From: an uncultured Pseudomonadota bacterium
Lineage (GTDB): Bacteria > Oederibacteriota > Muellerivitia > Muellerivitales > Muellerivitaceae
Length of the DNA: 64,000 nt
Direction of reading: 5' to 3'
Assembly (NCBI GenBank): GCA_963836235.1
Contig: CAWIIP010000002.1
Coordinates: forward strand, 139,454 to 203,453
Position numbers and translations under genes: made by a program
Shown: piece by piece, positions 36,001-61,724 of the stretch
How the letters are laid out: each line of letters begins with the position of its first letter
How positions within the stretch are numbered: the stretch's first letter is position 1
Notes under the pieces: model-generated
Told to the model about the DNA's origin: nothing
Seen by the model: only the letters and a program-made list of their open reading frames with translations
The model's database searches: none

Positions 36001-36144
36001 GGTCAGGCGCACGGTGCAGCCGCCGCTGGCGGTGACGATTTCGTTTCCGGAAACCTTAAGCAGGGGAGGAGCGGCTTGCGCGGGAGTTGGACCGAAAAAA
36101 GTGGAACCCAAAAGCACAAAAAGCGAAAGAAAGAAAAAGTTCAT
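33031..36144 (-). CDS. Glycoside hydrolase family 5 (cellulase-like) with ~450-aa Thr/Pro/Ala-rich linker and T9SS C-terminal sorting domain
   Basis: Start at [24 protein letters not shown] (signal peptide); GH5 NEP motif ([11 protein letters not shown]); long TPT/TAT low-complexity linker; C-terminus [10 protein letters not shown]...[13 protein letters not shown]...[22 protein letters not shown] matches T9SS/FlgD-Ig-like CTD. The antisense 379-aa VAVAV ORF is spurious. Confidence 0.8.
33990..34440. repeat. Intragenic tandem repeat, 2 x 222 bp (74 aa) ~95% identical, plus degenerate further copies, in the Thr-rich linker of the GH5 gene
   Basis: Landmark ccgtcaatgt at 34071 and 34293; ggttccggtgttgaccagcgtc at 34012 and 34234 (period 222). 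Confidence 0.8.
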
Positions 36145-40489: not shown

Positions 40490-42672
40490 TAAACTTTCAC
40501 CTCAACTACTTTGGTTGTGTCGTTTCCAAAAATGTCGATCACTTTGACTGCAATTTTATATTTACCCTTAGAAGGATACTCGTACTCGGCGCTTTCCATC
40601 TCGAGGGAGCGATCTTTATCAGTGCGGAAAGTCTGCCATTGGTTCTCAAAAATAAACCCTCCGGTCCAAACATCTCTTTCTTTTCCCTTTTCGTCCACCT
40701 GCTTTATTATCTCCTTACGGCTCTCATAGTCGAAGTCCACGGCCCAATAGTCGATCCAGTCTGTCCATTTCTTTGTGAGCACTTCCCTTTTTACAATGCC
40801 CTTTTTGTCCTTGGTGATCTTCACGACCTGGCCGTTCTCAACGGTTACTTTAGAACCGCCTGGTTTAAGGGATTCGGAAACAGCTTCCACGTCATCCTGG
40901 GTGTAGAAAACACCAAAATTTTTGAGGACAACGGTGGCTTTCATCCCTTTTATTTTGGGCAACACCTCACCATAAGCCGCGTCAAAGAATTTAACCTGAT
41001 TCTTTTCAACAGCACGGCGGTCAAAAACATCTTTAGGAATGTACTTCAGGGACAAGTTAATTCCGTGACGGTTAGCTTCATCTTTATAGGTTTCGATTAG
41101 GCCCATTTCAAATTCAAACCCAAGAACATCAACCTTTGTAAGCTTTAACTTTTTACAGGACTCAATTATTTCCTGAACCTGGCTAATGGTAACAGGTGCA
41201 TCCAAGGGGCCAACGAAAACAGCTACACCGCCTCTTTTACCATGAAATGGAGCTAGCTGTTGAACACGCTCTCCTTTGTAAGCTTGCAAGATAAGCTTTA
41301 GATAATCCTCCTCCTTCTGAAGGGATTGTTTCTTTCGTTCCTTCTCTGGTAGGTTTGGGTTAATTCCTACAAAGTATTGACGTTCATATTTGCCTAAGTT
41401 GAGAATTTCAAAACTACGATAGGGTTTTGTATCCTTTTTTAGTTCTCGTTGTGCCCCTATAAGGCGTTTACGAGTCGTATGAATTGAGAAACGACCTAGG
41501 TCACACCCGATCCATTTGCGGCCAAGTTTTTCAGCAACTGAAAGAGTCGTCCCGGAACCACAAAAAAAATCAGCAACCAGATCAGTGTCATTTGAGGAGG
41601 CTTTAATAATTCGTTCTAGTAATGTTTCAGGTTTTTGGGTCGCATAATTAGTTCTTTCCTCGGCCATTGAGTTAACTTCTGAAATATCAGTCCAAATATC
41701 ACCCAATGATTCCCCTTTTTCTTCATCTAAATATCTTATTAATCTTTTATTCCCACTTGAGGTTACCCAAATTTTGTTTTGTTTTTCAAACTGTTTAATT
41801 GAATCTTCCGAATAATCTCCCAAATCACAATCACGAAATAATCTTCCTTTTTTATCAGGTCGAAATTTTGTTTTAATAAAATTTTCGTCGTAGGGTTTAT
41901 AAGCACCGTTCCAAGTCCATTTCTCGGACTTGGAATAAAATAGTATAGAGTCAGAATTCCTAGCATATTGGCCAGATGTCGCTTTAGCTCCCCGGACTGG
42001 CTGCCTTCGCCATCTAATTTCATTTCGAAAATTTTCTAACCCAAATAATTCCTGCATTACCAGACGAATTACACTATTCAACCTCCAATCACAATGAACG
42101 TAAATAGAGCCATCGTTTGCCAATAAATCCTTCATTAATTTTACCCGCTCGTACATCATTGATAAATATGAGTCGGCTCCTCTACCCCATGTGTCTCTAT
42201 AGGCCACGTCTTCTATTACACTTGGCTCTTTTTCTAACAGTCCTTTGTCGCCAATCTCTAAGTTAATAGAAAAATCTGATCCAATATCAAAAGGAGGGTC
42301 GATGTAAATGAGTTTCAAACCACCCACTTCATCGATCTCTTGGCGCAAAGGCCCATTTTTTAGAGATGAAAGGACTAGTTTATTGTCACCCCAAATAAGT
42401 TTATTACTCCAACCACTAGCCTGACGGCCGCTTTGGAGATCTAAAGAAAAGAGATCCGCCACCTGGCCAGTTTTTTCTGACCTTGGTTCGTCGATTTGTT
42501 CGATGACTTGGAACGGAAGAACTGCATTCGTGACTTCTTGGGACTTCCCTTGCCACACAAGCTCAACTTCAGGAGCATCGGCAAAGAGAGAAAGGCGGTA
42601 TTTGGGTGGAAGAGGTTCTCCCCGGTCGACCATGGCTTTGATTTGTTCTTTTTCTTGATCGGAAAGGTACAC
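40489..42672 (-). CDS. mod: Type III restriction-modification system methyltransferase (Mod), N6-adenine beta-class, with ~150-aa C-terminal extension
   Basis: 727 aa; motif IV IYIDPPFDIGSDF precedes motif I DFFCGSGTTLSVAEKLGRKWIGCDL (beta-class order typical of Mod). Confidence 0.85.
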   Translation of the reverse strand: MYLSDQEKEQIKAMVDRGEPLPPKYRLSLFADAPEVELVWQGKSQEVTNAVLPFQVIEQIDEPRSEKTGQVADLFSLDLQSGRQASGWSNKLIWGDNKLVLSSLKNGPLRQEIDEVGGLKLIYIDPPFDIGSDFSINLEIGDKGLLEKEPSVIEDVAYRDTWGRGADSYLSMMYERVKLMKDLLANDGSIYVHCDWRLNSVIRLVMQELFGLENFRNEIRWRRQPVRGAKATSGQYARNSDSILFYSKSEKWTWNGAYKPYDENFIKTKFRPDKKGRLFRDCDLGDYSEDSIKQFEKQNKIWVTSSGNKRLIRYLDEEKGESLGDIWTDISEVNSMAEERTNYATQKPETLLERIIKASSNDTDLVADFFCGSGTTLSVAEKLGRKWIGCDLGRFSIHTTRKRLIGAQRELKKDTKPYRSFEILNLGKYERQYFVGINPNLPEKERKKQSLQKEEDYLKLILQAYKGERVQQLAPFHGKRGGVAVFVGPLDAPVTISQVQEIIESCKKLKLTKVDVLGFEFEMGLIETYKDEANRHGINLSLKYIPKDVFDRRAVEKNQVKFFDAAYGEVLPKIKGMKATVVLKNFGVFYTQDDVEAVSESLKPGGSKVTVENGQVVKITKDKKGIVKREVLTKKWTDWIDYWAVDFDYESRKEIIKQVDEKGKERDVWTGGFIFENQWQTFRTDKDRSLEMESAEYEYPSKGKYKIAVKVIDIFGNDTTKVVEVKV

Positions 42673-43991: not shown

Positions 43992-44876
43992 CTATTTAAA
44001 TATCTCATTCAGCACGTATGCCAACCTTATCCCAGCCTTCTCAAGCTGTTGGTCCACGATGGGGCGCATTTTATCAAAGTAATCACCCGGAAGGGGCTTA
44101 TCGCTGTAATCCTGGGTCCCTGGGTCCATTCCTTTGTAGACCTTAGTCTTGGCGATCATGTAACTCTCGAAAACCCAATTTTTCTCACTCCCCTTGGTCC
44201 AGGTGGCCGCCTGGTCCCCGGGGATCGCCTTTTCAAGGGTGGAGGCCAGCTCCCGGGGATCCTCCTCGGTCTTAGACTCAATTAGATGGTCCCAAAGAGC
44301 GTGTAATTTGATTTTAGCCCCGTGGCCACGGTGGCCAGGGGCTTTGAACCGGACCATCTTCTCGTTTCCCCCGCGGTCGCCGTCATCGGCACAATGAAGG
44401 GGTTGGTGTAAGTCGCCCATGAAGTGGACGACGAATTTTAGGGCCTCTAAGCGCTTGGATTTAGGTTGGGTTTCATCCCCCAAAACACCTTCAAATATCT
44501 GGAGCTGGTTGATGACGCAATCATTATTGGGGCAATAATCCTGCTCGTCTTTAAGGGTTAGGTCTTTCCGGATAGGGAGGTCGATGAAATGCCACGGGGC
44601 TGTCTCACGGCGCGATTCACGGATTTGGTCCGCCCAATTTGAAATACTGGCCAGATCGTCCGGCTGCAATGAAGTCACAAGCTGAATTGCGGGCTTTGCC
44701 TGTGCCGATTCCATAGAAGAATCGGCCCCCTGGTCCAGGATGGAGGCTAATTTTGCCTTGGCGGCCGTGGCGAGGTTGTCCTGGGCGATATAGGCAATGG
44801 TTTCGTGGCCGACCGGACCCCATGCGGCCGCCGGCAATGTCCCAAAAAGATTTAAACAAAGTACGGCAAAAAGCAT
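43992..44876 (-). CDS. Secreted S1/P1-family zinc nuclease
   Basis: Start at MLFAVLCLNLFGTLPAAA (signal peptide) then WGPVGHETIAYIAQ; WHFID, HFMGDLHQPLH, LHALWD and RLAYVLNEIF motifs of S1/P1 nucleases. Confidence 0.8.
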   Translation of the reverse strand: MLFAVLCLNLFGTLPAAAWGPVGHETIAYIAQDNLATAAKAKLASILDQGADSSMESAQAKPAIQLVTSLQPDDLASISNWADQIRESRRETAPWHFIDLPIRKDLTLKDEQDYCPNNDCVINQLQIFEGVLGDETQPKSKRLEALKFVVHFMGDLHQPLHCADDGDRGGNEKMVRFKAPGHRGHGAKIKLHALWDHLIESKTEEDPRELASTLEKAIPGDQAATWTKGSEKNWVFESYMIAKTKVYKGMDPGTQDYSDKPLPGDYFDKMRPIVDQQLEKAGIRLAYVLNEIFK

Positions 44877-45161
44877 CCCGAAAGCCCTCAAGCTTTCGAA
44901 GGATTGTGCGAAATTCCTAAAGGTCAAAGGGGGTTTGTTTGACCTGATAAATGGAATTTTGCAAAAAAGGAGGGGTATCAGGCCCAGCGAATTGATAATC
45001 TTCGCGGCCTTCGACGAGGCTTCAAGCCGAGGAGAAAGCTTTGGGGGTGCCAATACCGGGGGTATTGGTATACCGGAGAGGTGTGACTTCGTCGAAATTA
45101 GGGGCCATAGCGTGAAAAATATTTTCATTTTTTGTACTCAATTCCTACTTCTTTTTAAAAA

Positions 45162-45770
45162 TCAATTATTAGGCGTTTGATGAGGTTTAATTCTGGTCCT
45201 GGCCCGGTCCGCTCTCGGAGGCTGATTGTGTTTGCGGGAGTTCAGCGCCCACCCGATTCCTGTCTTATAATACCGCCACAGCCAGTGCTGGATGAGACCG
45301 CCTCTCCTCCCTAGCTTTTTTGCCACATCATTAGTTTTCATCCCTTCCGCCAGGCAGGCAAGCGCCTGCAACTTTTCCCTCACCCACGGTCGTTCCTCTT
45401 TTGCCAAAAAGGACTTAATCTCCTGCAAGTTCATATTCCGCACAAGGCGAGGATGGAAAAATCCCTTGTCTGTCCAATTCTTTGATAGCGCATTGAGAGG
45501 GACCTTTCGTTCAAGGATCCTCGTTATTGAAGAAAAGGAACCGGCAAGAAATACCGAGAGTTTCAATAGCACGTGAACAGATTGGACTCCTTCTTGCTCC
45601 CATCGTCCCCATTCCTCAAGCGTGCATCCACAATTGTCGGCAGCTTGTTCTTGGGTAAGGTTCTTTTCCAAGCGGAGTTCCCTGATTACTTCCCCGGTTT
45701 TTCGCTGAACATCTTTCCGTGTGAGCTTTACCCTCGCGGTGAGCGATTTTTGGGAGTCGAATCCTTTCAT
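45162..45770 (-). CDS. HTH(XRE)-HTH protein, diverged paralog of 29543..30118
   Basis: 202 aa; same architecture and ~60% aa identity (TGEVIRELRLEKNLTQEQAADNCGCTLEEWGRWEQEG ... KLQALACLAEGMKTNDVAKKLG). Confidence 0.5.
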   Translation of the reverse strand: MKGFDSQKSLTARVKLTRKDVQRKTGEVIRELRLEKNLTQEQAADNCGCTLEEWGRWEQEGVQSVHVLLKLSVFLAGSFSSITRILERKVPLNALSKNWTDKGFFHPRLVRNMNLQEIKSFLAKEERPWVREKLQALACLAEGMKTNDVAKKLGRRGGLIQHWLWRYYKTGIGWALNSRKHNQPPRADRARTRIKPHQTPNN

Positions 45771-46734: not shown

Positions 46735-46845
46735 GGTGCCGTCCTGGATTGCATTTTAGGGCCATCCAAAAAAATCCTGAACAGAAAGTCGAATAATTTT
46801 AGACCGGGATACCGCCCCGCCGGCCAGGCCGGCGGGGCGAAAATC

Positions 46846-47214
46846 CTAATACTCGTTGGGGACCATCAGGACAGGTTTACCCTCCTGCATAGCGACGTAA
46901 AACTTCCAGGTTCCCTCCGGGAAATCCGTGAATTCGATCTCCTGCCGCACAATTTCTGGCCGGTCGTCGTCCTCCTTCATCGTAAGGATCGCCTTGGAGG
47001 CTTTGACTTCAAGCGTCCAAAACTGGATTTCCTCCTTCCGGGCATAACTGAAAATGGCGTCGATCAGCCAATAGGCCCCGGCAATCTCCGCCACGGCCTG
47101 GACCCCTTCGGTGTAAATGCCTCCCGTAATGTGCTTGAAGTAGCTCACGCTACCCGTGCTCATGGCAAAAACCTCCTCTATCCTCAACTTCTTTACGGCT
47201 TCTTCCCTGTCCAT
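46846..47214 (-). CDS. Hypothetical protein
   Basis: 122-aa ORF; SD AAGGAG upstream; preceded by structured element A1. Confidence 0.4.
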   Translation of the reverse strand: MDREEAVKKLRIEEVFAMSTGSVSYFKHITGGIYTEGVQAVAEIAGAYWLIDAIFSYARKEEIQFWTLEVKASKAILTMKEDDDRPEIVRQEIEFTDFPEGTWKFYVAMQEGKPVLMVPNEY

Positions 47215-47707
47215 AGATGCTCCTTATCTTTATTTGGGAGGGGCCCCCTCCGGGGGGCGGCCCTCAAAGAATCTGGGCCGCAACACGGAGGCGAGAGAGG
47301 GTTGGTGGGTGGAGATTGAGCCGTGCGAAAGAAGCACCTAGCCAACCCCAGCAAACCGCTTCGGGCAAAGTGCCGAAGGGCGGACGCCGCGGCGGACGCA
47401 TCTAGGCATTTAGCGGCCCTTGCCCCTGGGCCAGACGGTATTTGGCGGCCCAGGGGTGCGATCTATCAGGCCAGCGGCACGATGAGGTTTGCGAACCTTG
47501 AAGCCGTTCGATCTTGGGGGTCCGGGGGGATCTTCCGCCCGGGCTAGGAGAGGGGCGCGGGGAGAGGGGTTTTTCTTTCCCCGAAAATTCCGAGGCCCGG
47601 CATAGGGAAGGTTACACGGCCGCTTTGCGGCCGGCGAACCTTCTTCAAACCCGCCAGGGTGCCGGGCCGAGCAAAACAAAAGGCCCCCCTAAGAGGGCCT
47701 CCGGTCT
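47215..47707. promoter_or_regulatory. GC-rich structured noncoding element A1 (member of repeated family with 48934..49620 and 52236..52760)
   Basis: Shares blocks with A2/A3: cccggagggggcccctccc next to the gene start, gggggtccggggg...ccgcccgggcta, and hairpin GAAGGTTACACGGCCGCTTTGCGGCCGGCGAACCTTC. All ORFs called inside are low-complexity P/G/R translations. Confidence 0.6.
47672..47702 (-). terminator. Rho-independent terminator (minus strand) after gene 47708..48100
   Basis: Hairpin AGGCCCCCCTAAGAGGGCCT followed on the minus strand by a U-run (plus-strand caaaacaaaa). Confidence 0.6.
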
Positions 47708-48100
47708 TCAAGCCGTAGGGTGTGAAGATTTTTCCAAGGGGTGTTTCTTGGAACACTTAGGGCAAAACTTCCCGTCTCTGCCCTCGACGGGCAAGGAATC
47801 CTTCAAGAGAATTTCCGTGTTGCAAACTTGGCACCAAGTGGCGTAGGTATCATCCGAAAGGATTTGAGGAACCAATTTTTTAATAAGGCCCTTCCCTACC
47901 GTGGCCCGGCCAAATTCATAAGCCCAACGGGTGGCGGTGTACTTATCCTTTCCCGGCCAAGTAAGGCGGCGGTATTCGTCTCCCTGGGCGGCGTCCCCTC
48001 CGTCGTCGTCCTCCACCTTGAAAACTTGTAAGCCGGGAATGTCTGACACCACATCGGACAAAACCCCACCTTCCATAAAAATGATAATTTTCGGCATAAC
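47708..48100 (-). CDS. Hypothetical protein with C-terminal zinc ribbon
   Basis: Start at MPKIIIFMEGG with SD AAGGAGG; C-terminal CQVCN...CPKC. Confidence 0.45.
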   Translation of the reverse strand, partial: VMPKIIIFMEGGVLSDVVSDIPGLQVFKVEDDDGGDAAQGDEYRRLTWPGKDKYTATRWAYEFGRATVGKGLIKKLVPQILSDDTYATWCQVCNTEILLKDSLPVEGRDGKFCPKCSKKHPLEKSSHPTA

Positions 48101-48107
48101 GTCCTCC

Positions 48108-48404
48108 TTAAAGTTCGTATTTTTCGGCAAAGTTTGAAAGTGATTCAGCGGAAGCGGCACAAACGTCCAGCGCGCGCGCGGCGGCCAAGCCGACAAGGGC
48201 GCTCCCGCCTTCCTCAAAATCCAGTTTTGAAAATATCGTTTCGGCCTGGTCGGTGAGGTAGTTGTTTAAAGCTCCCGCAACTTCCAAAAGGCCGTGATGG
48301 CTTACGAGAAACGCTAAAACGTCATAAGGCTCGTAAGTCTCAAGGCGGTATTTTTTAAACTCCTTTACGGTTTCTTTTTCCGGCCCTAACAATTTGATTT
48401 CCAT
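48108..48404 (-). CDS. Hypothetical protein
   Basis: 98 aa; SD TAGGAGG 6 nt upstream of ATG. Confidence 0.45.
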   Translation of the reverse strand: MEIKLLGPEKETVKEFKKYRLETYEPYDVLAFLVSHHGLLEVAGALNNYLTDQAETIFSKLDFEEGGSALVGLAAARALDVCAASAESLSNFAEKYEL

Positions 48405-48444
48405 AAATCCTCCTAAAATTTTTCATCCCCAAAGGGGCGATTTC

Positions 48445-48933
48445 TTAAACCAAAAGCCCTGCGGTGCGGAAGGAAAAGTGGCCTTCGTGGGTGACTATCA
48501 AGTGATCATGAACGGTTATCCCCAGGGCACGGGCGGCGGTGATAATTTGGCGGGTCAATTGCTTGTCCCCTTCCGATGGTTCAAGGCTTCCGGCTGGGTG
48601 ATTGTGGGAAAATATGATCCCCGTGGCGTTTAACTCCAAAGCTTTTTTTAGTACCTCTCTTGGATAAACGGCGGTATGGTCCACGGTTCCTTCGCTGTTC
48701 AAAACCGTTTCTAAAACGTGGTTGCGGTGGTCGAGGTACATGGTGACAAAAGCCTCTTTGTCCCTGCCTCCGATGTATTTGGCAAAATAGGCCACTACAT
48801 CATCTGGGCTTGTTACAACCGGGCCTCTCTCGTAATCGGTCCTTGCTTCGGACCATGAAACCGGGGGAACCGTGGGGGGAATTTTGAACATCACTTCCAA
48901 AGGCATTTCTAACTGCTTGATTCTCTTGCTCAT
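48445..48933 (-). CDS. radC: RadC-like JAB/MPN domain protein
   Basis: HNHPAGSLEPSEGD (HNHPSG JAMM motif) and surrounding RadC-family conservation. Confidence 0.8.
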   Translation of the reverse strand: MSKRIKQLEMPLEVMFKIPPTVPPVSWSEARTDYERGPVVTSPDDVVAYFAKYIGGRDKEAFVTMYLDHRNHVLETVLNSEGTVDHTAVYPREVLKKALELNATGIIFSHNHPAGSLEPSEGDKQLTRQIITAARALGITVHDHLIVTHEGHFSFRTAGLLV

Positions 48934-49620
48934 TTTGAACGCTCCGCTTTTTTATTAGAGGAGAGAGCACCCTCCGGGTGCGCCCCCTCAAAAATCCTTG
49001 GGGGCGCATACGGAGCGAGTAAGGTGTTTGTGTTGGGGCAAATCAATGTCGGCGGGTCCTGCGCCTTGGTGTTAGCAGACCGGGAAAATTCCCAAACAGG
49101 TTTTGGGCCGAAAGACGAGGAACGAGGCGTGGCCCGTTTGGGAATTTAGGCGCTGACCGATCCCGGCGGCGATAGCCGCCCGTCGATTTGGTTTGCGTCC
49201 TCTATGTCTTTCGTTTCTGGGGTTGCCAGGGGTCACTGTCCCTTGGCTAGGGTGGGGATATAGGGGAGGGTCTTTTCCCTCCCCCTGGGGGGTCCGGGGG
49301 ATGGCTCGAACGAGCCCGCCGCCCGGGCTAGGGTGGGCACCTGGCCCGTCGCTTTCAAAGCGAGGGCCTCGCAGTGGTGGTGCAAACAGCATTGAAGCTG
49401 TTTGCAAAAGGGTAGGGGTACTTCCCTTCCCTGCTTTAATGATTTTCGAGGCGCGGCAAAGGGAAGGTTACACGGCCAAAGGCCGGCGAACCTTCCTCAA
49501 TCCCGATAGGGGCCGCACCGAGACAAAGAACACCTTAATCGGCTTTTCCCCATACACCTTCCCGACCCTTCTCAAGATAGACGCGTTTCACGTAAAGTGT
49601 AATATGTAGGCCTGGCCCCT
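48934..49620. promoter_or_regulatory. GC-rich structured noncoding element A2 (closest relative of A3)
   Basis: First ~60 nt (ttattagaggagagagcaccctccgggtgcgccccctcaaaaatccttgggggcgcatacggagcga) nearly identical to the start of A3; shared ~100-nt block ggtcact...ctagggtgggg...ggggggtccggggga...cgccgcccgggcta; perfect hairpin GCAAACAGCATTGAAGCTGTTTGC; GAAGGTTACACGGCC...GGCGAACCTTC hairpin. Confidence 0.65.
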
Positions 49621-49812
49621 TTTTCTATGGGGAAACGCCGCCCGGTCTACCGTGTGGAAATTGGAGTCGCGGGGAAAAGTTAATCCATAAAAACCGACGA
49701 ACGAATTTGGATTTTAGTGAGGAGGTTTTTAACTTTGAGGGCCGGCGATTAAAAAATTACACAGGCAAAAGGAGGAAATCTGTCCAGAGGGTCCAAAGCC
49801 CCTTTAATGGAA

Positions 49813-50409
49813 TTACTGTGAGGGTGGGAGAGGGAGAGTTGTGATATTTAATTTTTTATTGACGTATTGAATCCATTTCTCAGCGGAATTTCTTTGGTCA
49901 TCTGTCTGGGCCGTTTGAACAGCCGCATTAAAATATTTTAACGAATCTTGCCACCTATCCTCTTTAGTTAATTTTACTCCATACGAGAAGTAAGAATTAA
50001 AGTTTTCACCACCTTCCAAATTTGAAGAATTGGAAGCTTGGAGGTCGGCATTCATATTTTTCTGGTTAAGTTTATTCCAATCAGAGGTAATGGCGTCTAC
50101 GATTAAAGGAATAAAACCTAATAGGAAACCTGGAACAACATCCAAAACTATCCATCCACCATCAACACCATTACTCAACGAGCTTGTTTGGGTGGTATAT
50201 CCAGGTTTCCTAAATTCAACATTATGAGTTTTGTTAGATTCTAGAGGAACAGAAACTGGGGTAGTTCCCCTTTGCAAACCATCAACATAAACTTCTGCAC
50301 CAGGGGGATTGGAGGAAAATTCAACAGGTTCTGCACCACCTTTAAAGACCGTTGCGCAACCGGTAGAAATAAGGCTGAACACTAACATTAAAGCCATTAA
50401 CTTTTTCAT
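49813..50409 (-). CDS. PEGA-domain lipoprotein
   Basis: Start MKKLMALMLVFSLISTGC (lipobox); PPGAEVYVDGLQRGTTP = PEGA motif. Confidence 0.6.
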   Translation of the reverse strand: MKKLMALMLVFSLISTGCATVFKGGAEPVEFSSNPPGAEVYVDGLQRGTTPVSVPLESNKTHNVEFRKPGYTTQTSSLSNGVDGGWIVLDVVPGFLLGFIPLIVDAITSDWNKLNQKNMNADLQASNSSNLEGGENFNSYFSYGVKLTKEDRWQDSLKYFNAAVQTAQTDDQRNSAEKWIQYVNKKLNITTLPLPPSQ

Positions 50410-50555
50410 AACACTCCGAATGATCAAGCGTCCACTTATTTCATCGAGATATAAGGTTAATTGTCGTGACTACCCTTGGTCAACACAAAAATAGGCTAGG
50501 AGGGGAGGCACTTCCGTTGCACACCATCCTTTTTGCGACAGCCATGTGCAGGTAT

Positions 50556-50873
50556 TTAGGCACTCTTTTTCCCGCGGGCGAGTTCCCTTTCAAATAGAAT
50601 CCGCACCCCGAAAGCGTGAAGAACCTTTTCTAAACTCGAAAGGGTTGGATTTCCCTTCTCGGAAAGCATCGTGTAAAGGGATTCCCTCGCAAGTTGTGTT
50701 TCCTTGGAAAGCTTTTTCATCCCGCCTAGGGCGTCGGCCACGTTCTTCAATGCCTTCAAAAAGTATTTAAAATCTCCGGTTTCCCAAGCGGCGTTTATGT
50801 ATCGGACCCGTGTTTTAAGGTCTTGAAGTTCTTCAAACAAATAACTTTTATGGTCAATCAATCCAAATTTCAT
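50556..50873 (-). CDS. Addiction-module antidote protein, HTH type (HI1420-like)
   Basis: LKALKNVADALGGMKKLSKETQLARESLYTMLSEKGNPTLSSLEKVLHAFGV matches the conserved HI1420-type antidote pattern; 4-nt overlap with upstream toxin gene. Confidence 0.7.
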   Translation of the reverse strand: MKFGLIDHKSYLFEELQDLKTRVRYINAAWETGDFKYFLKALKNVADALGGMKKLSKETQLARESLYTMLSEKGNPTLSSLEKVLHAFGVRILFERELARGKKSA

Positions 50874-51244
50874 TTCACGCTCCCTTTAAAAGCCGCCCAT
50901 AGCTTGGTGGCTTTCTTTGTGTCATTATCCTGATTGTCTTTTTCTCCCCCACAAACCACGACGATGATGGCTCCCTTATGATAGCCGTAATAAACCCGGA
51001 AACCTCTTCCGTAATGAATCCTTAATTCCCAAAGGCCCCCGGTCTTTGGCAGGTCGTGATGATCGCCAAAATTCCCGTCCTCCATCCGGTCAACCGCCAT
51101 CCGTATAAGGTCCTTGGCGGTTTCGTCCTTTAAGCGGCGGTGCCACTCCTTGTATAAAACCTTACCGTCTACCTCCAAATATTTAACTACAAAGGGGTGG
51201 TTTTCCATGCCTGAACCTAGTGTAATATTTATATTACTCATTGT
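50870..51244 (-). CDS. Addiction-module killer protein, RelE/ParE superfamily (HI1419-like)
   Basis: GDHHDLPKTGGLWELRIHYGRGFRVYYGYHKGAIIVVVCGGEKDNQDNDTKKATKLW matches the HI1419-type toxin pattern. Start chosen at MSNINITLG; upstream part of the 172-aa ORF looks non-coding. Confidence 0.65.
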   Translation of the reverse strand, partial: TMSNINITLGSGMENHPFVVKYLEVDGKVLYKEWHRRLKDETAKDLIRMAVDRMEDGNFGDHHDLPKTGGLWELRIHYGRGFRVYYGYHKGAIIVVVCGGEKDNQDNDTKKATKLWAAFKGSVK

Positions 51245-51301
51245 CAAATCTTCCTTTCGAAAACAATCCCGAAAGGGGCCGCACCGAGACAAAGAACACC
51301 C

Positions 51302-51343
51302 CAAAAAAAGCCCCCCGGTTTGAAACCGGGGGGCTTTTCTTCC
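51302..51343. terminator. Bidirectional rho-independent terminator downstream of ardC
   Basis: Hairpin GCCCCCCGGTTTGAAACCGGGGGGC flanked by caaaaaaa (5') and ttttcttcc (3'). Confidence 0.65.
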
Positions 51344-51362
51344 TGAAAGGATGGAGCTGTTA

Positions 51363-52235
51363 TTAAGCGGCTTCCTCCTTCTTTTCAAATTTCACGCCTA
51401 AGATAAAGTCGGCTGCGGATTGGGCGAGTGATGCCGCCCGGAAAATGGCGCGGGTGTCATCCTTTAAAACCTTGATCCAGTTTTGGACATAGGCGGCGTG
51501 TTGGGTGTCGTATTCGTAGCCGACATGCCCAGCCAAGAAAGCCCCGCCTATTTCGGCGACAAGTTCCTCGAAGGCATAATCAACTGAACCGAAAACCAGG
51601 GACTGCTTGCGGTTAAGCCGTTTCGGGTGGCCGCTCCAGTGGGTTAGCTCATGGTAACTCGTGGAAAAAAATTTCTCCTCCGTCTTGAAAGAACGGCGAG
51701 GGGGAAGGTTGATATAGTCCAAAGTCGGGGAGTAAAAAGCCTTGTCGGGGTTTTCTTCAACGATCTTCGCCCCGGATTGGGTGAGGATGCGCTCGGCTTC
51801 CTCGTTCTTGTTGAAAGGCTTTTCCTCGGCGCTCTTGGGCCGCAAGTGGTCGAGTCCCTCGGTTTGGTCCAGGTTGAAAACCGTAAAATATTTTAGGTAT
51901 TTGATAACCTTCTTTTCAAAATCCCCTTCCGCTTTTTCCTCCTTCACCGTCAAGGGCTTGAAGAAAATGACCTCAACCCCCTTGGCCCCGGCCTTGATGT
52001 TGCCTCCCGCTGTTTTGGCCTGTTGGTAGGTGAGCCAAGAGTTACAGGAAAAACCCTGGCGGCTCGCAACCGAGGTAAGCCAAATAACATTCACCCCCCG
52101 GTATGCCTTCCGGGTGGCGGCGTTCTTGGGGAAGTTTCCGGTTTTAATCCAGGGCGTTTCCCAAAAAAGATTTCCTTTCTCCATGTCCTCCAAAATTTGG
52201 TTGGTGATTTTCTCCATCAAATCGTTTGTTTTCAT
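51363..52235 (-). CDS. ardC: ArdC-like antirestriction protein (N-terminal ssDNA-binding domain + C-terminal HExxH zincin domain)
   Basis: N-terminus KAYRGVNVIWLTSVASRQGFSCNSWLTYQQAKTAGGNIKAGAKG matches ArdC-N; C-terminal YHELTHWSGH metalloprotease motif. Confidence 0.75.
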   Translation of the reverse strand: MKTNDLMEKITNQILEDMEKGNLFWETPWIKTGNFPKNAATRKAYRGVNVIWLTSVASRQGFSCNSWLTYQQAKTAGGNIKAGAKGVEVIFFKPLTVKEEKAEGDFEKKVIKYLKYFTVFNLDQTEGLDHLRPKSAEEKPFNKNEEAERILTQSGAKIVEENPDKAFYSPTLDYINLPPRRSFKTEEKFFSTSYHELTHWSGHPKRLNRKQSLVFGSVDYAFEELVAEIGGAFLAGHVGYEYDTQHAAYVQNWIKVLKDDTRAIFRAASLAQSAADFILGVKFEKKEEAA

Positions 52236-52760
52236 CTGGCCTGCTCCCTTTGATTTATTAGAGGAGAGCCGCCCTCCGGGTGGGCCCCCTCAAAAATCCT
52301 TGGGGGCCCAAACGGAGCGAAAGAGGTGTTGTTGTTGGGGTAAAACAAGATCGAGGGTCCTGCGGTGTTCCTTTAGCAGATCGGGAAAATTCCAAAACAG
52401 TTGTGGGGCCGGATAAGCCGACGAAGGAGGCCCGGCCCGTTTTGAAATTTAGGCGCCGACCGATCCCGACGGCGTTTATCCGCCCTCACCCTCCAGGTGA
52501 GGGCGAAGGTTGATAATGCCAACTCTATAAGAGTTGGTAAAAGCCGCCCGGCGATTTGTTTTGCGTCCACGTTGTCTTTCGCTTCCGGGGGTTCCGGGGG
52601 TCACTTCCCGCCGGGCTAGGGATGGGAATAGGGAAGGGGCTGTTCCCTTCCCTTGGGGGGGTCCGGGGGAAACGCCGCCCGGACTACAGGTTTGGGAAAC
52701 GGTTGAAAAGGTTGGGGGATAAATCGGCGGGAACAAAACCTTTAAAAAAAAGCCGAAAGG
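52236..52760. promoter_or_regulatory. GC-rich structured noncoding element A3
   Basis: See A2; directly abuts the ardC start codon. Divergent intergenic region shared with SpoVG-like gene 1. Confidence 0.65.
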
Positions 52761-53127
52761 CTTTTCACCTTATGGGCCAAAAAAGCGACCGGCCTTGGGT
52801 CTCACGCCCCTTCCCTCGTCCCCAAATACCGTGGACGGTGAACCAGGCCTCGAACGCTGCCGTTGCACTCTCGCGATTCGTCGCTTAAAGGATTGCCTGA
52901 CCAGAGCTCCAGGTCATCCGCTCCGCTACTTCCCTTCCGCCAAAAGCACGCGGAAGTCCCTTAATCATCGTTGCCGGAAAAACCGGCAACCTCGACTTCC
53001 GCACCAGGCAGGCCTGCTTGAGGGCAGGCCGCCAAGAATCCTTTTTACCCGCGCCCCCCTACTCGTTCGTAGAGGGGGGCGCAGTAAAAAGGCGCGAAAC
53101 CCTCAAATAAAAATGAGGAGGATTCGC

Positions 53128-53547
53128 ATGAATCCAAAGATTGAAGTAGAGAAGTTGAATATCGCCAAGAAAGGACAGCAGGTCGGGACGTTCTCCGCTC
53201 GGGTGGGCTTCGATGGCGGGTGTGAGGTTACTCTACCCGGTATGAGGATCGTCGAGGGGGCCAAAGGGACTTTCGTGGATGTTCCGTCAAGGCAGTTCAA
53301 GGACGTGGGCTTTGTTCCCTTTTACTACTTGAACAAGGCCTTAAGGGATTTAATCACGCATGAGGCGCTGGATGCCTACCGCAAAGCGGTGGCGGAAAAG
53401 GCGGGTGAGAAACCGACGAGTCCGGCGGTGCCGGCGGCCCCTGCAGGGCCCGCAGTTGCGGCGGTAAAGCCGGAAAGTCCAGTGGTTCCCTCTCAAGCGA
53501 AAACGTGGCCACGGAAGGAATGGAAGCCAAACCCGGCAAGGAAATAG
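53128..53547 (+). CDS. SpoVG-like nucleic-acid-binding protein, paralog 1
   Basis: Start at MNPKIEV preceded by SD GGAGGA. FSARVGFDGGCEVTLPGMRIVEGAKGTFVDVPSRQFKDVGFVPFYYLNKALRDLI aligns with SpoVG core ([52 protein letters not shown]). ~250-nt conserved leader at 52840..53127. Confidence 0.6.
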   Translation: MNPKIEVEKLNIAKKGQQVGTFSARVGFDGGCEVTLPGMRIVEGAKGTFVDVPSRQFKDVGFVPFYYLNKALRDLITHEALDAYRKAVAEKAGEKPTSPAVPAAPAGPAVAAVKPESPVVPSQAKTWPRKEWKPNPARK

Positions 53548-53561
53548 AAGATAAAAGAAGG

Positions 53562-53595
53562 GCCCGGGGCCGAGAGGCTCCGGGCTCTTTTTGTT
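53562..53595 (+). terminator. Rho-independent terminator after SpoVG-like gene 1
   Basis: GCCCGGGGCCGAGAGGCTCCGGGC + TCTTTTTGTT. Confidence 0.65.
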
Positions 53596-53645
53596 GAAGG
53601 GGGAAGGTTTGGAGGGGCGTACTACCCCCTCCAACTTTGTCAGTT

Positions 53646-54041
53646 CTAGGGTTTAGGCTGTTTAGCGAAGGTCTTGTCGAACGACCCTTTCCAGCGAATC
53701 CCCTTTACCCGACCTTCCATGATTGCGTCCGCCTTCTCGTCAATTTCTTTGGCGAGTTTGGGACCGGGTTTATAAAATTTCGTTCCATTGTATTCAAAAA
53801 GGAATTTGTTAGATTTACTTCTCAGGCGGGTCTTTTTCGGCAGGTTTGCCTTATTCGGTTTCTTAGGTTTTGATTTCACGATTTTCCCCCCAACCAAGGC
53901 ATCCGCCACGTTTTTGAGGGAAGAAAGAATATGTTTCTTATCCCGCCTGTCGAGGGCGGCGTTTAGATAACCCTTCCTGATTTCAGGGTCTTTTAGTTCC
54001 TTCAAAAGAAATTCATGATGATCGACTGTTCGGCCTTTCAT
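53646..54041 (-). CDS. Protein with HI1420-type antidote-like N-terminus fused to a basic Lys-rich tail
   Basis: KGRTVDHHEFLLKELKDPEIRKGYLNAALDRRDKKHILSSLKNVADALVGG parallels the N-terminus of 50556..50873, but the HTH part is replaced by a K/P-rich region. Confidence 0.4.
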   Translation of the reverse strand: MKGRTVDHHEFLLKELKDPEIRKGYLNAALDRRDKKHILSSLKNVADALVGGKIVKSKPKKPNKANLPKKTRLRSKSNKFLFEYNGTKFYKPGPKLAKEIDEKADAIMEGRVKGIRWKGSFDKTFAKQPKP

Positions 54042-54080
54042 ATTATCCTCCGTTGGAAAGCTCCTAAGGCGCAAACACCT

Positions 54081-54419
54081 TTAAAAGTTTACGGTTAAGT
54101 CAACGTTCTTAACCAGATCGGAAGCCGTCACCCCCAAGGCCTTGGCAATAAGGTCAATTATTCCTAAGGTCGGGCTATAGGTGCTGTTCTCGTTTTCAAT
54201 ATTCAAAACCGTCCGGCTGGAAACACCCGCCTTCTCGGCCAATTCAACTTGGGTCAATTTCTTCTTGTTCCGCAACTTAATGAGGTTCCAACCAAGGGAA
54301 ACCCTTGGGCTCGGATTCTTCAAAGAGGCGTAAAGGTCGGGCCGTCTTTTCTTAAGGTGTTTAATGTCTTCTTCAATGGAAACTCCCGGCAAAACAATTT
54401 TTTTAAAATGTGTTTTCAT
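54081..54419 (-). CDS. XRE-family HTH protein (antitoxin-like)
   Basis: LIKLRNKKKLTQVELAEKAGVSSRTVLNIEN = HTH_XRE. Confidence 0.7.
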   Translation of the reverse strand: MKTHFKKIVLPGVSIEEDIKHLKKRRPDLYASLKNPSPRVSLGWNLIKLRNKKKLTQVELAEKAGVSSRTVLNIENENSTYSPTLGIIDLIAKALGVTASDLVKNVDLTVNF

Positions 54420-54707
54420 TTATTCCCCCTCCAATGCTTTTATTTCAGCTAAGTATTTTTGAATCGCCTCTTTTTCTTTTTCGCGCGGCTCCCCCGCCCT
54501 GGTGATATGGGCGGTCAAAATGAAAAGGGCGTGCAACTTAAAAGACAAATAATAATTCACCACCAAAACCCTTTTTTCTCCCTTTAAAATTTTATCAAAA
54601 AAACCAGAACGGTCTTTAGCATAAGCAAGCCCCAAAACCTGGAACCTTAAAAGGTCAAGCTCTTCCCGGTCCATAATGTTGTCCCGGAAGTTCCGAAAAT
54701 ACGGCAT
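54420..54707 (-). CDS. Putative toxin partner of the downstream XRE antitoxin (RelE/HigB-like?)
   Basis: 95 aa; directly abuts the HTH gene in HigBA-like order; sequence assignment weak. Confidence 0.4.
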   Translation of the reverse strand: MPYFRNFRDNIMDREELDLLRFQVLGLAYAKDRSGFFDKILKGEKRVLVVNYYLSFKLHALFILTAHITRAGEPREKEKEAIQKYLAEIKALEGE

Positions 54708-54748
54708 AAATCCATAAAAACCTCACTTCTTATTATGTGTAGTATCCT

Positions 54749-54991
54749 TCATATAGTCAAGTACGACAAACTGCGCTCGATAAAATCCTCATAATCCGAA
54801 TCAAAAACATCCTGGCACTTGAGGCAGTTTCCGGTTTCTTCGTCTAACGGGAGGGCGTTGCTTCCGCACGAAAAACAAAACCCCTTGCAAGCGGGGCAGG
54901 GTGTCCCCTCTTTTTCGTCGTCCCATCCGTGGCCACATTTCCAAGCGGAAAAAGGAAAATGGAGTCCTGTTTTAGAAATTTCGTTTATCAA
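54749..54991 (-). CDS. Small Cys-rich (zinc-binding) protein
   Basis: 80 aa with CGHGW, CPACKGFCFSCG, CLKC clusters. Confidence 0.4.
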   Translation of the reverse strand: MINEISKTGLHFPFSAWKCGHGWDDEKEGTPCPACKGFCFSCGSNALPLDEETGNCLKCQDVFDSDYEDFIERSLSYLTI

Positions 54992-55098
54992 ATTTTTTCT
55001 CCTTAAATCCTTTCTTCTTTGATTAGTTCCAAAAACCTATCGATTTCCTGGTCGGGAACCCTGAAAAGTTCCTCTATGTTTTTGATCTCTTCGTTCAT

Positions 55099-55560
55099 TT
55101 CCCCTGCTCCTTCGCTTTTTTTTCGGGGCTTTTAAGTTCCTGCCCCCACCGGCACAAGCCGGCGGTGGGGGCAGGAACTTGAAGGGGATTCCGCAGGAAA
55201 AATTTGGTTTCAATGCGACAGCAGCGCCGACCTTGCCGACCATGACAATTGCGATCTTCAATTGGCGTGGGCGGTGCTTTGCAGTCGGCGCATTTGAAAG
55301 GAATTAAATTTTCTTAGGAATAGACCATTGGCAAAGCGGGGGCACCTCGCCCTTTGCCCACAAGGCAAAGGGCGGCGTCTTGGTTGTGCAAACAGCAATA
55401 AGCTGTTTGCACATAGGGGCGGGTTGGCCCCGGATGGTTAAATGGATGAAGGTTACACGCCCGCGAAATCAGCGGTCGGCGAACCTTCTTAGGTATTTTT
55501 CGAAGGGACTTAGGCTTTCAACAAGGCCTTAAAACCAAAACCGCGAACGGCGATCCGAAA
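55099..55560. promoter_or_regulatory. Structured noncoding element B1 (related to 59504..59800; contains sub-modules also found in A2)
   Basis: 17-bp hairpin TTCCTGCCCCCACCGGC-ACAA-GCCGGCGGTGGGGGCAGGAA; conserved block gacaattgcgatcttcaattggcgtgggcggtgctttgcagtcggcgcat; hairpin GCAAACAGCAATAAGCTGTTTGC; GAAGGTTACACGCCC...GGCGAACCTTC. A 31-aa micro-ORF (55003..55098, minus) sits at its edge. Confidence 0.6.
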
Positions 55561-55863
55561 CCTCAAGTCAAAGATAAAGAATGCCAACACAGATTCATAA
55601 GGAATCAGCAACCGGCCTGGCCCTCCGGGACCCCGGGCAAAATCAGCCCGGCGGCCTCGAACGCTGTCGGCCTCCTCCTCCGTCGTCGCCTTTCGCGATT
55701 CGTCGCTTAAAGCAATTTTCTAACAGGGCTACAGGTCATCCGCTCCGCTGCTTCCCTTCCGCAAAGGAACATACAAACTTTTTACCGCGCCCCCCTACTC
55801 GTTCGTAGAGGGGGGCGCAGTAAAAAGGCGCGAAACCCCAAAATAAAAATGAGGAGGATTCGA

Positions 55864-56280
55864 ATGAATCCAAAGATTGAAGTTGTGAAGTTGAATATCG
55901 CCAGGAAGGGACACCAGGTCGGGACGTTCTCCGTCAAGGTTGGGTTCGATGGCGGGTGTGAAGTGACGCTACCGGGGATGAGGATCGTCGAGGGTTCCAA
56001 AGGAACCTTCGTGGATCTGCCGGCGAGAAAGTTCAAGGAAGGGGGCTTTGTTCCCTTCTACTACTTGAACAAGTCTTTGAAGGATTTGATCACCAAGGAA
56101 GGGCTGGAGAATTACCGAAAGGCCGGGACGGGGAAGCAACCGGAGAAGGCGGCATTCGCGGTCCCTGCGGCCGCAAGGCCAGCGGCGGCCAGCGCGACCA
56201 TGGTTTCAAAACCAACGGTTCCTGCTCCGGCGAAAACGTGGCCACGGAAGGAGTGGAAACCGAATTCATTTAAAAAATAA
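55864..56280 (+). CDS. SpoVG-like nucleic-acid-binding protein, paralog 2
   Basis: MNPKIEVVKLNIARKGHQVGTFSVKVGFDGGCEVTLPGMRIVEGSKGTFVDLPARKF... ~85% identical to paralog 1 over the N-terminal 90 aa; same SD and conserved leader (55630..55863). Confidence 0.6.
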   Translation: MNPKIEVVKLNIARKGHQVGTFSVKVGFDGGCEVTLPGMRIVEGSKGTFVDLPARKFKEGGFVPFYYLNKSLKDLITKEGLENYRKAGTGKQPEKAAFAVPAAARPAAASATMVSKPTVPAPAKTWPRKEWKPNSFKK

Positions 56281-59194: not shown

Positions 59195-59503
59195 TTACTT
59201 GCCCTTTTTCACCGGGAGGGCCTTGTAGACCTTCTCGGCTTCGGGCAGAACCTCGTCGTTGAGGTTGTTGAAGGGGTAGTAGCACTTGATGAATTCAGGC
59301 TTGCCACCTTGCTCCTTCGCTTGCTTGACCTCGTGGATTGCGGAGTCCACTTTCAACCCCTTATCCGTCTGGACTAGCCGGTAGTTCGGTAGGGTGATAA
59401 GCGGCTCACCGTCCACCGACACCGTGACCTTGAAAAATGCCAGGGTCTTGGTGTCCTCCTTCTTGGTTTTTTTCATGTCCTTCACTTCGATTTGCAGTCC
59501 CAT
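59195..59503 (-). CDS. SpoVG-like protein, divergent paralog 3
   Basis: Start MGLQIEVKDMKK with SD AAGGAG. LAFFKVTVSVDGEPLITLPNYRLVQTDKGLKVDSAIHEVKQ...FIKCYYPFNN...AEKVYKAL aligns position-by-position with paralogs 1 and 2. Confidence 0.45.
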   Translation of the reverse strand: MGLQIEVKDMKKTKKEDTKTLAFFKVTVSVDGEPLITLPNYRLVQTDKGLKVDSAIHEVKQAKEQGGKPEFIKCYYPFNNLNDEVLPEAEKVYKALPVKKGK

Positions 59504-59800
59504 GACTTGCTCCTTATTTTTATTATTGCCTGGGGCCTTCGGCCTCTTTTTTGCGGGACTTTTAAATTTCCGGCCCCGCCGGCACAAGGCCGGCGGCGGG
59601 GCTGGAAATTAAGAAGGGGATTCCATCTTGGGAATTTATTCACCAAGCGATAGCGGCGCCGACCCGATGTTTTTTATCGCCCTTGGCCGAAGGCCAACGG
59701 GTAGGCCTCACATGACAATCGCGGGTTTCGATTGGCGTGGGAGGTGCCTCGCAGTCGGCGCATCTTTAAAAAATAAATTTTCAAAGGAATCTTCACGTAT
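59504..59800. promoter_or_regulatory. Structured noncoding element B2
   Basis: Hairpin TTCCGGCCCCGCCGGC-ACAA-GGCCGGCGGCGGGGCTGGAA with compensatory changes relative to B1; conserved block gacaatcgcgggtttcgattggcgtgggaggtgcctcgcagtcggcgcat. Confidence 0.6.
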
Positions 59801-60756: not shown

Positions 60757-61724
60757 AATCCAGATTCACCCCGGTCAGGCGCACGGTGCAGCCGCCGCTG
60801 GCGGTGACGATTTCGTTTCCGGAAACCTTAAGCAGGGGAGGAGCGGCTTGCGCGGGAGTTGGACCGAAAAAAGTGGAACCCAAAAGCACAAAAAGCGAAA
60901 GAAAGAAAAAGTTCATTTCGCCCCGGGACGTTTTAAGCCGGGAACCAAAGAACGTTTTCGTTTTGAAAAATAAGTTTTGTGGAGACCTGTTCAAAGTGTC
61001 ACCCGATACACTGGTTAAAGGTTGCGGAACAATTGGCAACAAAACTCGAAATGTTTCATCGCTTCTCATGAACCGGAATTTCCCAGATGACCTTCTCTGA
61101 AAACATTGCCGGGTAATTTGTTTCTCATTATATCGCCCCCCCCCCCCCGCTTCTTCCATCCGAATCCGGAATTTTCCGTCCTGGGCCACTGAAATAAGCC
61201 CCAGGAAAAGGTTTCTGTGCCCAAAAAAGCTGAAATTGACCTTCTGGAAAGCCAATTCTCGTTGTGAGCGCACACCTATCCTGCGGTAGTCGCTCGGGTT
61301 GAAGCCTTGATGCCTTCCTGCGGTTATCGCAGTACTGGCGCTCGCGGCCTTACCATTGCCAGTAGCCGTATCCGATTGAGGATTTCAGCAAACAGGCGTC
61401 GGGAAACCATCACCTCCGCCATCTGGAAAATAACGTACCGCGAATGACGGATGACATTAGCCCCGATCTTGATGAGTTTTTCCCTCAAGGTCGTTAGCGA
61501 CCAATGTTTCACCAGTTCTGGCAGTGCCAGTCGGCGCAGGAAGTTGCCCAGATTGTAGGCCAGGGCGAATAGTTGTAAGCGCACTTGGTTGTCCGCGAAG
61601 TCGTGGCAGCTTAGTCTTGTCCACTTCATCGCATACTTTCCCTCTTTGATCCACTGCTCAGCCGTGCCTCTTCCGTTGTAGAATTTCACCACCTGGGGTG
61701 CCGGTCGTCGCATGTTCGTTACGA
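60757..61724. repeat. Segmental duplication copy B (968 bp), containing a 5' pseudogene fragment of the GH5 gene (60757..60969, minus strand)
   Basis: Identical to 35985..36900 apart from a 53-nt insertion (61020..61072) and C13 vs C14 tract. Includes the cellulase ATG (60969..60967) and first 71 codons fused to unrelated sequence. Confidence 0.9.

Follow-up and report, generated by a model that had tools for sequence, protein, structure and literature searches.

Conserved folded leaders of a previously uncatalogued family in front of ArdC, RadC and DUF6876 genes in islands of uncultured bacteria

Introduction

Three long GC-rich intergenic elements, designated A1, A2 and A3, are situated in a 64,000-nucleotide (nt) stretch of contig CAWIIP010000002.1 (assembly GCA_963836235.1, positions 139,454 to 203,453) from an uncultured Pseudomonadota bacterium, hereafter termed the window, and stand in front of the genes for a DUF6876 protein, RadC and ArdC, respectively. 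The question raised by this locus is in which form such elements act on their genes. The initial annotation compared them with the single-stranded DNA (ssDNA) promoters of the Frpo/ssi type, naming structured RNAs of the 5′ untranslated region (UTR) as an alternative; the latter fits better. A1–A3 are members of a hitherto uncatalogued group of conserved folded leaders in conjugative-element islands of uncultured bacteria. Judged from their sequences, the elements most likely act on the transcript of their own gene rather than as Frpo-type ssDNA promoters. A1–A3 and the related B and C elements are tentatively read, with a confidence that falls a little short of even, as modular structured cis-acting mRNA leaders of the downstream genes.

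To our knowledge, the mechanism that times the expression of anti-restriction and establishment genes in conjugative elements is known only for a few enterobacterial plasmids, in the form of Frpo/ssi. The Frpo/ssi sequences are single large stem-loops in regions of 50–350 bp, which rebuild −35 and −10 boxes (and UP elements) and are active only as ssDNA (PMC11541004, PMC12672017), and all leading-region genes that they drive are reported to share one orientation (PMC11541004). The radC and STAXI motifs are structured as well and lie beside radC, antirestriction and ssb genes; in their case, too, the question of RNA versus ssDNA has been raised (PMC2864571).

Organization of the A elements

The three regions are intergenic and lie directly 5′ of minus-strand genes, as first annotated, and Pfam identifies these genes as DUF6876, RadC and ArdC. 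The shared blocks quoted in the initial annotation are likewise present. In blastn comparisons, A2 and A3 are 81% identical over 246 nt (E 5e-57) and 81.5% identical over 130 nt (E 3e-28), which amounts to about 375 nt in total. A1 takes part in three shared blocks (E 1e-14 to 6e-4), namely the one at the 3′ end, CCTAGCCCGG...CCCCCGGACCCCC and the hairpin GAAGGTT...AACCTTC, the last being enclosed by an outer helix GG(C/T)(C/G)CGGC / GCCG(G/C)GCC. The individual elements differ in their accessory parts. A1 starts directly after a terminator-like hairpin at 47679–47702. In A2, the homologous portion extends from 48934 to 49538, and the segment 49539–49620 is particular to the island variant in the window. 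In A3, the 5′ GAAGGTT hairpin module is missing, and the tip of one helix is extended by a 65-nt insertion with two hairpins (around 52485–52550), which is otherwise present only in the copy L037b from a related island.

The elements are non-coding, as was proposed at the outset, because their internal open reading frames (ORFs) have no Pfam match and each pair of copies is separated by 2–10 frame-breaking indels with lengths that are not multiples of three.

Conserved fold of the elements

The elements span 400–700 nt, of which a fold of 330–600 nt with about 12 helices is conserved. The consensus derived with RNAalifold from an alignment of eight copies contains 81 pairs in 12 helices, arranged as two or three 5′ hairpins, a three-way junction, a long hairpin and a 3′ platform. 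The three-way junction is closed by a helix whose two arms are more than 200 nt apart. A covariation-aware alignment, the check put forward in the initial annotation, reveals a conserved structure with compensatory changes: in the eight related copies, 29 pairs are changed on both sides compared with 11.7 in column shuffles, a count reached by none of 500 shuffles. Simultaneously, 92.3% of the consensus cells are paired, versus 83.9% in the shuffles, and controls with slid partners give pairing of at most 58%. In the long hairpin (helix 8), compensatory changes occur at all 12 of the 12 pairs; for example, AAATTCCCAAAC/GTTTGGGAATTT is replaced by TTTCTCTCCCCT/AGGGGAGAGAAA. Such swapping of whole helices for different complementary sequence indicates that selection acts on the pairing and not on the sequence.

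The structure conservation index (SCI) reaches 0.70–0.75, with a mean z-score of −4 to −5. Folded individually as sense-strand RNA, the elements are more stable than their shuffles, with z-scores of −6.6 (A2), −4.2 (A3) and −2.3 (A1). Insertions of variable length are located at the hairpin tips.

The replaced helices also bear on an explanation at the level of double-stranded DNA (dsDNA), in which the elements would be operator or recombination sequences, or a selfish repeat marking module junctions, that are kept alike by gene conversion and have no folded form. Modules of element plus gene are indeed mosaic and shuffled between islands, a 37-nt direct repeat encloses an inserted toxin–antitoxin (TA)/PEGA module, and tyrosine recombinase trios of the recombinase-in-trio (RIT) type lie nearby. 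Copies within an island are, furthermore, homogenised, L036a being equal to L036b over approximately 330 nt. However, the exchange of whole helices for different yet complementary sequence, the clustering of frame-independent indels in loops and hairpin tips, and an orientation strictly tied to the downstream gene all argue against a dsDNA-level function, which is the least probable of the explanations considered here.

Structure of the 3′ platform

The part of the element next to the gene, the 3′ platform, begins in the sense direction with pyrimidine segments (CACCT-type and CGCTCCG), followed by a GC hairpin of the form GCGCCCCC-loop(...TGA)-GGGGGCGC. Behind this hairpin come CCCGGAGGG, the CU tract CTCTCTCCTCT, an A-rich spacer, the Shine–Dalgarno sequence (SD) and the ATG. 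The initial annotation had described a small gene-proximal hairpin, CACCCGGAGGGTG; this more likely belongs to a longer helix, formed by CTCCG and CGGAG on either side of the GC hairpin. The GC hairpin itself covaries, and its loop ends in an invariant TGA. The motifs CTCCG, TGAGGG and CCCGGAGGG are invariant and retained even in distant members, and the outer platform helix covaries in the distant members L050 and L052 (CCTTC/GAAGG).

The degree of conservation differs along the element. The block of approximately 83 nt by the SD is 93–94% identical between the window and the related contigs L036 and L037, whereas the adjacent RadC is 71–75% identical, so that the earlier statement that the elements are more conserved than the flanking genes is upheld for this block. 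It does not extend to the remaining element, where identity is about 76% across the half that can be aligned. With R1, a covariance model built for the 3′ platform, the scores are 64–112 bits for L041 and every A copy, and 19–32 bits for C1, C2, B1, L037:9896-9985, L050/51, L052 and L053.

As first annotated, each element abuts the SD and start of the next gene, and the platform runs into the SD and ATG in every copy. Sixteen instances were collected in the window and related islands, all of them sense to, and directly 5′ of, genes for ArdC, RadC, DUF6876, SpoVG-like proteins or small ORFs; by direct reading of the sequences, the 3′ hairpin lies approximately 46–79 nt ahead of the start codon. 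Alternative pairings are possible within the platform, namely CTCCG with CGGAG, GGAGGG with CTCTCC, and the CU tract or CGCTCCG with the SD. In the A-core copies, the SD is predicted to be paired: its unpaired probability is 0.00–0.08 in A2, A3, L036a, L037a/b, L050 and L053b, compared with 0.15–0.31 in shuffles, of which 0–12% are that low.

The continuity between platform and gene bears on the possibility that the elements are independently acting non-coding RNAs (ncRNAs), for example RNA decoys or scaffolds that bind a protein of the host or of the integrative and conjugative element (ICE), such as a SpoVG-like protein, or anti-defence RNAs, with incidental gene adjacency. The large, complex and conserved fold would be suitable for such a role, several copies are bounded on the 5′ side by terminator-like hairpins, and three SpoVG-like paralogues, of a nucleic-acid-binding family, are encoded in the same island. 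An ncRNA of this kind is nevertheless improbable: no terminator exists between element and SD, all 16 instances have the same placement and direction with respect to their gene, and no promoter of its own was found.

Several known types of signal were also considered for the platform and rejected. A CsrA-type GGA loop does not apply, as the GGA in the loop of the first hairpin is not conserved in A1 or in the L041, L050 and L052 copies. Loop indels and inconsistent frames speak against a small ORF or leader peptide within the 3′ block. The likeness to a boxA/nut-like antitermination signal (TGCTCT...TAA) is limited to one subfamily, and a T-run past the 3′ hairpin, as in an intrinsic attenuator, is seen only in L050 and weakly in L052.

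Promoters and the folding strand

In a scan restricted to the sigma-70 consensus, no −35/−10 pair with at least 9/12 matches is present inside the elements on either strand. At the lower threshold of at least 8/12, a pair like TTGACA-N16-18-TATAAT is absent from the template strand of 8 of the 8 core copies and from either strand of most full elements. Promoter-like sites in the sense direction (9/12) are confined to the AT-rich extreme 5′ edge of whichever element comes first in a gene cluster, namely in L036 (9398–9425), L050 and L052. In L036, ArdC is followed directly by a full element and then by RadC, with no T-run terminator in between; together with the 5′-edge sites, this arrangement fits read-through transcription of the elements.

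All 7 of the elements in the window show a C-over-G skew of +0.04 to +0.09 that follows gene direction. The mean skew of 12 other upstream regions in the window is near zero, three of them being positive (+0.07, +0.07 and +0.21). The raw minimum free energy (MFE) favours the antisense strand by 4–49 kcal/mol, only because that strand is G-rich. The SCI is 0.70 versus 0.69 and 0.75 versus 0.72 for the two strands, with similar z-scores, and each strand also has extra wobble-dependent helices of its own. The computed tests thus do not discriminate between the two strands, so that an ssDNA explanation, although weakened by the features discussed below, keeps some probability.

According to that explanation, the elements would be ssDNA promoters or priming signals of the Frpo/ssi kind: the transferred strand of the ICE would fold on entry into the recipient, its hairpins would recruit RNA polymerase or primase, and ArdC, RadC and DUF6876 would be expressed before the complementary strand is made. 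The elements resemble the Frpo/ssi sequences of the IncF and IncI1 leading regions (classes 1–3) in that both are repeated, hairpin-rich and non-coding, each 5′ of an establishment or anti-defence gene or operon, with no conventional double-stranded promoter nearby. The gene context (ArdC, RadC, DUF6876 and TA genes, with a type IV secretion system (T4SS) coupling protein and ParAB in related islands) is also like that of a leading region or anti-defence region. A separate element rich in hairpins stands before each gene, often behind a terminator and without a double-stranded sigma-70 promoter, as expression from ssDNA only would predict. Furthermore, A2 folded as DNA is far more stable than its shuffles on both strands (z −9.1, sense; −7.4, template), the G-rich template strand takes slightly more G–T-compatible variation, and new, non-homologous classes of ssDNA promoters are still emerging (PMC12672017).

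However, the analogy to Frpo/ssi fails on four defining features, namely boxes, single stem-loop, plasmid similarity and one orientation. The −35/−10 reconstitution on folded ssDNA that the initial annotation had envisaged is not seen, as no sigma-70 pair reaching even 8/12 is present or can be rebuilt on the template strand of any of the 8 core copies, nor in most full elements. In place of a single stem-loop within 50–350 bp, the window elements form a multi-branched fold over 400–700 nt with a long-range helix. They have no homologue among 72,556 plasmids, where blastn (word size 11) with A2 and with the whole of 46800–53200 returned weak matches inside the ArdC coding sequence only. Within one island, the minus strand bears the A and B elements and the plus strand the homologous C elements, all of them in the sense of the gene that follows, although only one strand is transferred. 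In addition, conservation is strongest in the pyrimidine and purine segments close to the SD, for which no function in ssDNA is obvious. An ssDNA promoter or priming signal is therefore regarded as unlikely.

Proposed mode of action

Under the preferred reading as cis-acting mRNA leaders, each element would be transcribed together with its gene, forming a long 5′ UTR or, where the mRNA is polycistronic, the spacer between two cistrons. The variable upstream domain, comprising the three-way junction and accessory hairpins (250–500 nt), may then set the state of the near-invariant 3′ platform. In the platform, the pyrimidine segments (CACCTCTT, CGCTCCG and CTCTCTCC) and the purine segments (CGGAGGG and the SD) would pair alternatively around the stable GC hairpin, and this alternative pairing would gate the access of ribosomes to the SD and possibly affect mRNA stability. 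Each anti-defence or establishment gene would thereby obtain its own post-transcriptional control. A cis role at the RNA level best explains the sense orientation, the abutment on the SD, the SD-proximal constraint, the SD occlusion in the A-core copies, the 5′-edge promoter-like sites and the ArdC–element–RadC order.

Several results weigh against this reading. Sequestration of the SD is not general, the mean unpaired probability over 16 leaders being 0.25 in the native sequences and 0.28 in shuffles. No sigma-70 promoter is recognisable in A1, A3, L037b and L041b, all of which come after terminator-like hairpins, so that the reading does not account for their transcription. The G-rich antisense strand supports more pairs (92 versus 81), and pairs common to both strands contain 7 wobble-compatible cells in the sense strand compared with 13 in the antisense strand (2 versus 6 without A1). 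The eight aligned copies are drawn from few related island lineages, so that the covariation counts are not independent events. Finally, no GNRA or UNCG tetraloops are evident on reading the loops, and the main hairpins are plain Watson–Crick.

A broader possibility, tentative and on balance somewhat unlikely, is that the elements represent a new class of large (330–600 nt), multi-domain regulatory elements, reserved for the establishment and anti-defence genes that conjugative elements carry in uncultured phyla and acting either as an RNA that senses entry and releases translation, or as an ssDNA promoter or priming structure without sigma-70 boxes.

Related B and C elements

Elements related to A1–A3, which the initial annotation had not listed, are found on both strands of the island in front of further genes (Table 1). 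B1 has two hairpin modules in common with A1 and A2, and the B elements have the 3′ layout of the A elements, in which a long GC hairpin is followed by an A-run and then by the SD. Long near-perfect hairpins (AAGTTCCTGCCCCCACCGGC.../TTAAATTTCCGGCCCCGCCGGC...) are present in B1 (55129–55185) and B2 (59561–59610), and the B2 hairpin shows compensatory changes relative to B1, with differences on both arms that keep the pairing. Rfam matches of these hairpins to plant and animal miRNA precursors, ranked by E-value, were dismissed as generic hairpin matches. The C elements are homologous to those situated 5′ of RadC and DUF6876 in L053.

Three SpoVG-like paralogues are encoded in the island, each with its own C- or B-type leader. 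Their assignment is weak, with a Pfam E-value of 1e-4, which is below the cut-off, and an E-value of 0.27 to SpoVG in the PDB. As possible nucleic-acid binders, the SpoVG-like proteins are possible candidate partners of the elements.

Table 1. Positions of the elements, their structural parts and the adjoining genes in the window.
Feature	Position	Strand	Description
A1	47215..47707	−	5′ of DUF6876 gene; most diverged of A1–A3; nhmmer E 5e-76; R1 74 bits
A2	48934..49620	−	5′ of RadC; nhmmer E 2e-133; R1 112 bits
A3	52236..52760	−	5′ of ArdC; nhmmer E 6e-123
3′ platform of A2	48931..49035	−	Equivalents 47212–47310 (A1), 52233–52336 (A3)
Long hairpin of core domain, A2	49087..49148	−	AAATTCCCAAAC.GG / CC.GTTTGGGAATTT; consensus helix 8
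5′-module hairpin, A2	49464..49496	−	GAAGGTT-CGC-CGGCC / GGCCG-TGT-AACCTTC; also 47608–47644 (A1), 55448–55490 (B1)
37-nt copy of A2 5′-module start	51264..51300	−	Just past ArdC terminator; direct repeat of 49502–49538, 97% over 37 nt
DUF6876 gene	46846–47214	−	Pfam E 2e-29
RadC gene	48445–48933	−	Pfam E 3e-41
ArdC gene	51363–52235	−	Pfam ArdcN and zincin peptidase domain, E 4e-44/3e-33
B1	55099..55500	−	5′ of 31-codon ORF; R1 19 bits
B2	59504..59790	−	5′ of SpoVG-like gene 59195–59503 (−)
C1	52795..53127	+	5′ of SpoVG-like gene 53128–53547 (+); R1 29 bits, E 1e-5
C2	55590..55863	+	5′ of SpoVG-like gene 55864–56280 (+); R1 29 bits

Distribution among islands

The window is chromosomal, with SecA, LigA, riboflavin and ABC transporter genes, and the chromosome in which it lies has no T4SS genes. 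The island that carries the elements extends from approximately 36.6 to 60.7 kb and is bounded by 100% identical direct repeats and IS4-type transposase sequence. Near-identical islands occur in metagenome-assembled genomes (MAGs) labelled candidate division FCPU426 and "uncultured proteobacterium MFD05512", as well as on two metagenome contigs, and gene modules are gained or lost among these versions.

More distant relatives were gathered from contigs encoding relatives of ArdC (85%, 67%, 52%, 51% and 49% identity). Diverged A copies (72–80% identity) are located 5′ of ArdC and RadC in L036, and 5′ of RadC and DUF6876 in L037. Still more distant members, for which the 3′ platform is the main mark of recognition, lie 5′ of DUF3560 and ArdC genes in L041, ArdC or a small ORF in L050/L051 and L052, and RadC and DUF6876 in L053. 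The leaders are thus swapped among ArdC, RadC, DUF6876 and SpoVG-like genes between islands, and the presence of A-type leaders at RadC and DUF6876 in one island and of C-type leaders in another indicates that the leaders are interchangeable modules.

The initial annotation asked whether homologues neighbour relaxase or T4SS genes. A T4SS coupling protein is encoded in L036, L037 and L052, together with integrases in all three and ParA/ParB in L037, so that diverged copies are indeed carried by other mobile elements; no relaxase or oriT was seen. L036, L037 and L052 bear ArdC, RadC, DUF6876 and TA genes on the same strand, and such a region is that part of an integrative conjugative or mobilisable element which holds its cargo or establishment genes.

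An exact-pattern scan of a genome collection with the 3′ block returned 25 loci, which are mostly chance matches, only those in the FCPU426 and MFD05512 MAGs being real; the same scan of metagenomes returned near-identical copies only. No real match was obtained in IMG/VR with three patterns. Rfam (cmscan) has no match in the whole window at gathering thresholds, and none within the elements at E ≤ 5 over 46800–56200; no tRNA or tmRNA was found.

Comparison with known systems

Among described entities, the radC and STAXI motifs come closest, with Frpo/ssi as the other near comparison. Similar to the window elements, the radC RNA motif (RF01754) and STAXI (RF01728) are motifs from comparative genomics, situated near radC, antirestriction, ssb and integrase genes on mobile DNA. 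However, both are small, STAXI being a short repeated pseudoknot, and proteobacterial, whereas the window elements are several-fold larger and modular, with an SD-proximal platform. Neither model was matched in the Rfam searches described above.

Complementary pyrimidine and purine segments around a stable hairpin before the SD are also found in riboswitch platforms, RNA thermometers and leader attenuators (SD, anti-SD and anti-anti-SD), and the high conservation of the platform is as expected for segments with alternative partners. Compared with riboswitches, the upstream "sensor" domain of the window elements is far larger than known aptamers, and SD occlusion is supported only in the A-core copies. 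GOLLD, ROOL and HEARO/omega-RNA are likewise several hundred nt long, multi-branched and associated with mobile elements, mostly of uncultured bacteria. These RNAs are stand-alone, whereas the window elements are fused to the downstream translation start, are present in several copies per island and have no match in Rfam.

In the islands of FCPU426 and its relatives, every anti-restriction or establishment gene is accompanied by its own interchangeable, strongly conserved and folded non-coding module, which would represent a dedicated control layer that is absent from Rfam and from sequenced plasmids. If the elements act as RNA, a large structured leader class tied to anti-defence genes would be added; if they act as ssDNA, they would constitute a new promoter or priming architecture. 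Should an ssDNA promoter or priming structure without sigma-70 boxes prove true, "zygotic induction" would reach well beyond enterobacterial plasmids. Under either reading, the model of the 3′ platform is a search handle for anti-defence islands in metagenomes.

Other features of the window and related islands

The two 37-nt repeats (49502–49538 and 51264–51300) flank an operon of a Gp49/HigB-type toxin and its antitoxin and a PEGA lipoprotein gene. Judging from the ArdC–element–RadC order in L036, the TA (+PEGA) module seems to have entered an ancestral A2 within its 5′ module. The A2 segment 49539–49620 arrived together with the insertion of the PEGA gene; L008 and L024 have neither this gene nor the 82 nt.

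Recombinase genes are associated with ArdC in two of the related islands. In L037 (10001–14467), ArdC is split into an N-terminal part (10001–10729) and an MPTase part (14036–14467) by three tyrosine recombinase genes on the opposite strand, and this interruption is an insertion of the recombinase-in-trio type. A similar trio of tyrosine recombinase genes is located 5′ of ArdC in L052. A gene for an S1/P1-type nuclease is found beside ArdC both in the window (43992–45128) and in the distant island L041 (4210–6018), which suggests a recurrent cargo of these elements.

Other ORFs of the island comprise a methyltransferase-like ORF (40489–42672) and a helicase/restriction-subunit-like ORF (37823–40489), with an adjoining PHP-like/ATPase ORF; on reading of their translations, the ORFs at 37823–42672 looked like a putative type III restriction–modification pair. 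A regulator gene with HTH_31/HTH_23 domains is present in two copies, 29588–29887 and 45231–45530, which are 15.6 kb apart and 73% identical at the nucleotide level. One copy edges the anti-defence cluster, and both are possible island regulators.

The whole island is bracketed by two copies of a sequence of approximately 650 nt (35985–36611 and 60757–61435), 24.8 kb apart and 100% identical. The repeat contains the 5′ end of a large Thr/Pro-rich glycosidase-like gene, a run of 13 C and the end of an IS4-type transposase, of which a complete copy is located at 61324–62703 and a truncated copy at 36500–36889. It could be a duplication or capture mediated by an insertion sequence (IS), or an assembly artefact. 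Unrelated to the elements, repeats with a 12-nt period at 32200–35000 encode linkers rich in Thr, Pro, Ser and Ala in a 1090-residue secreted glycosidase-like protein.

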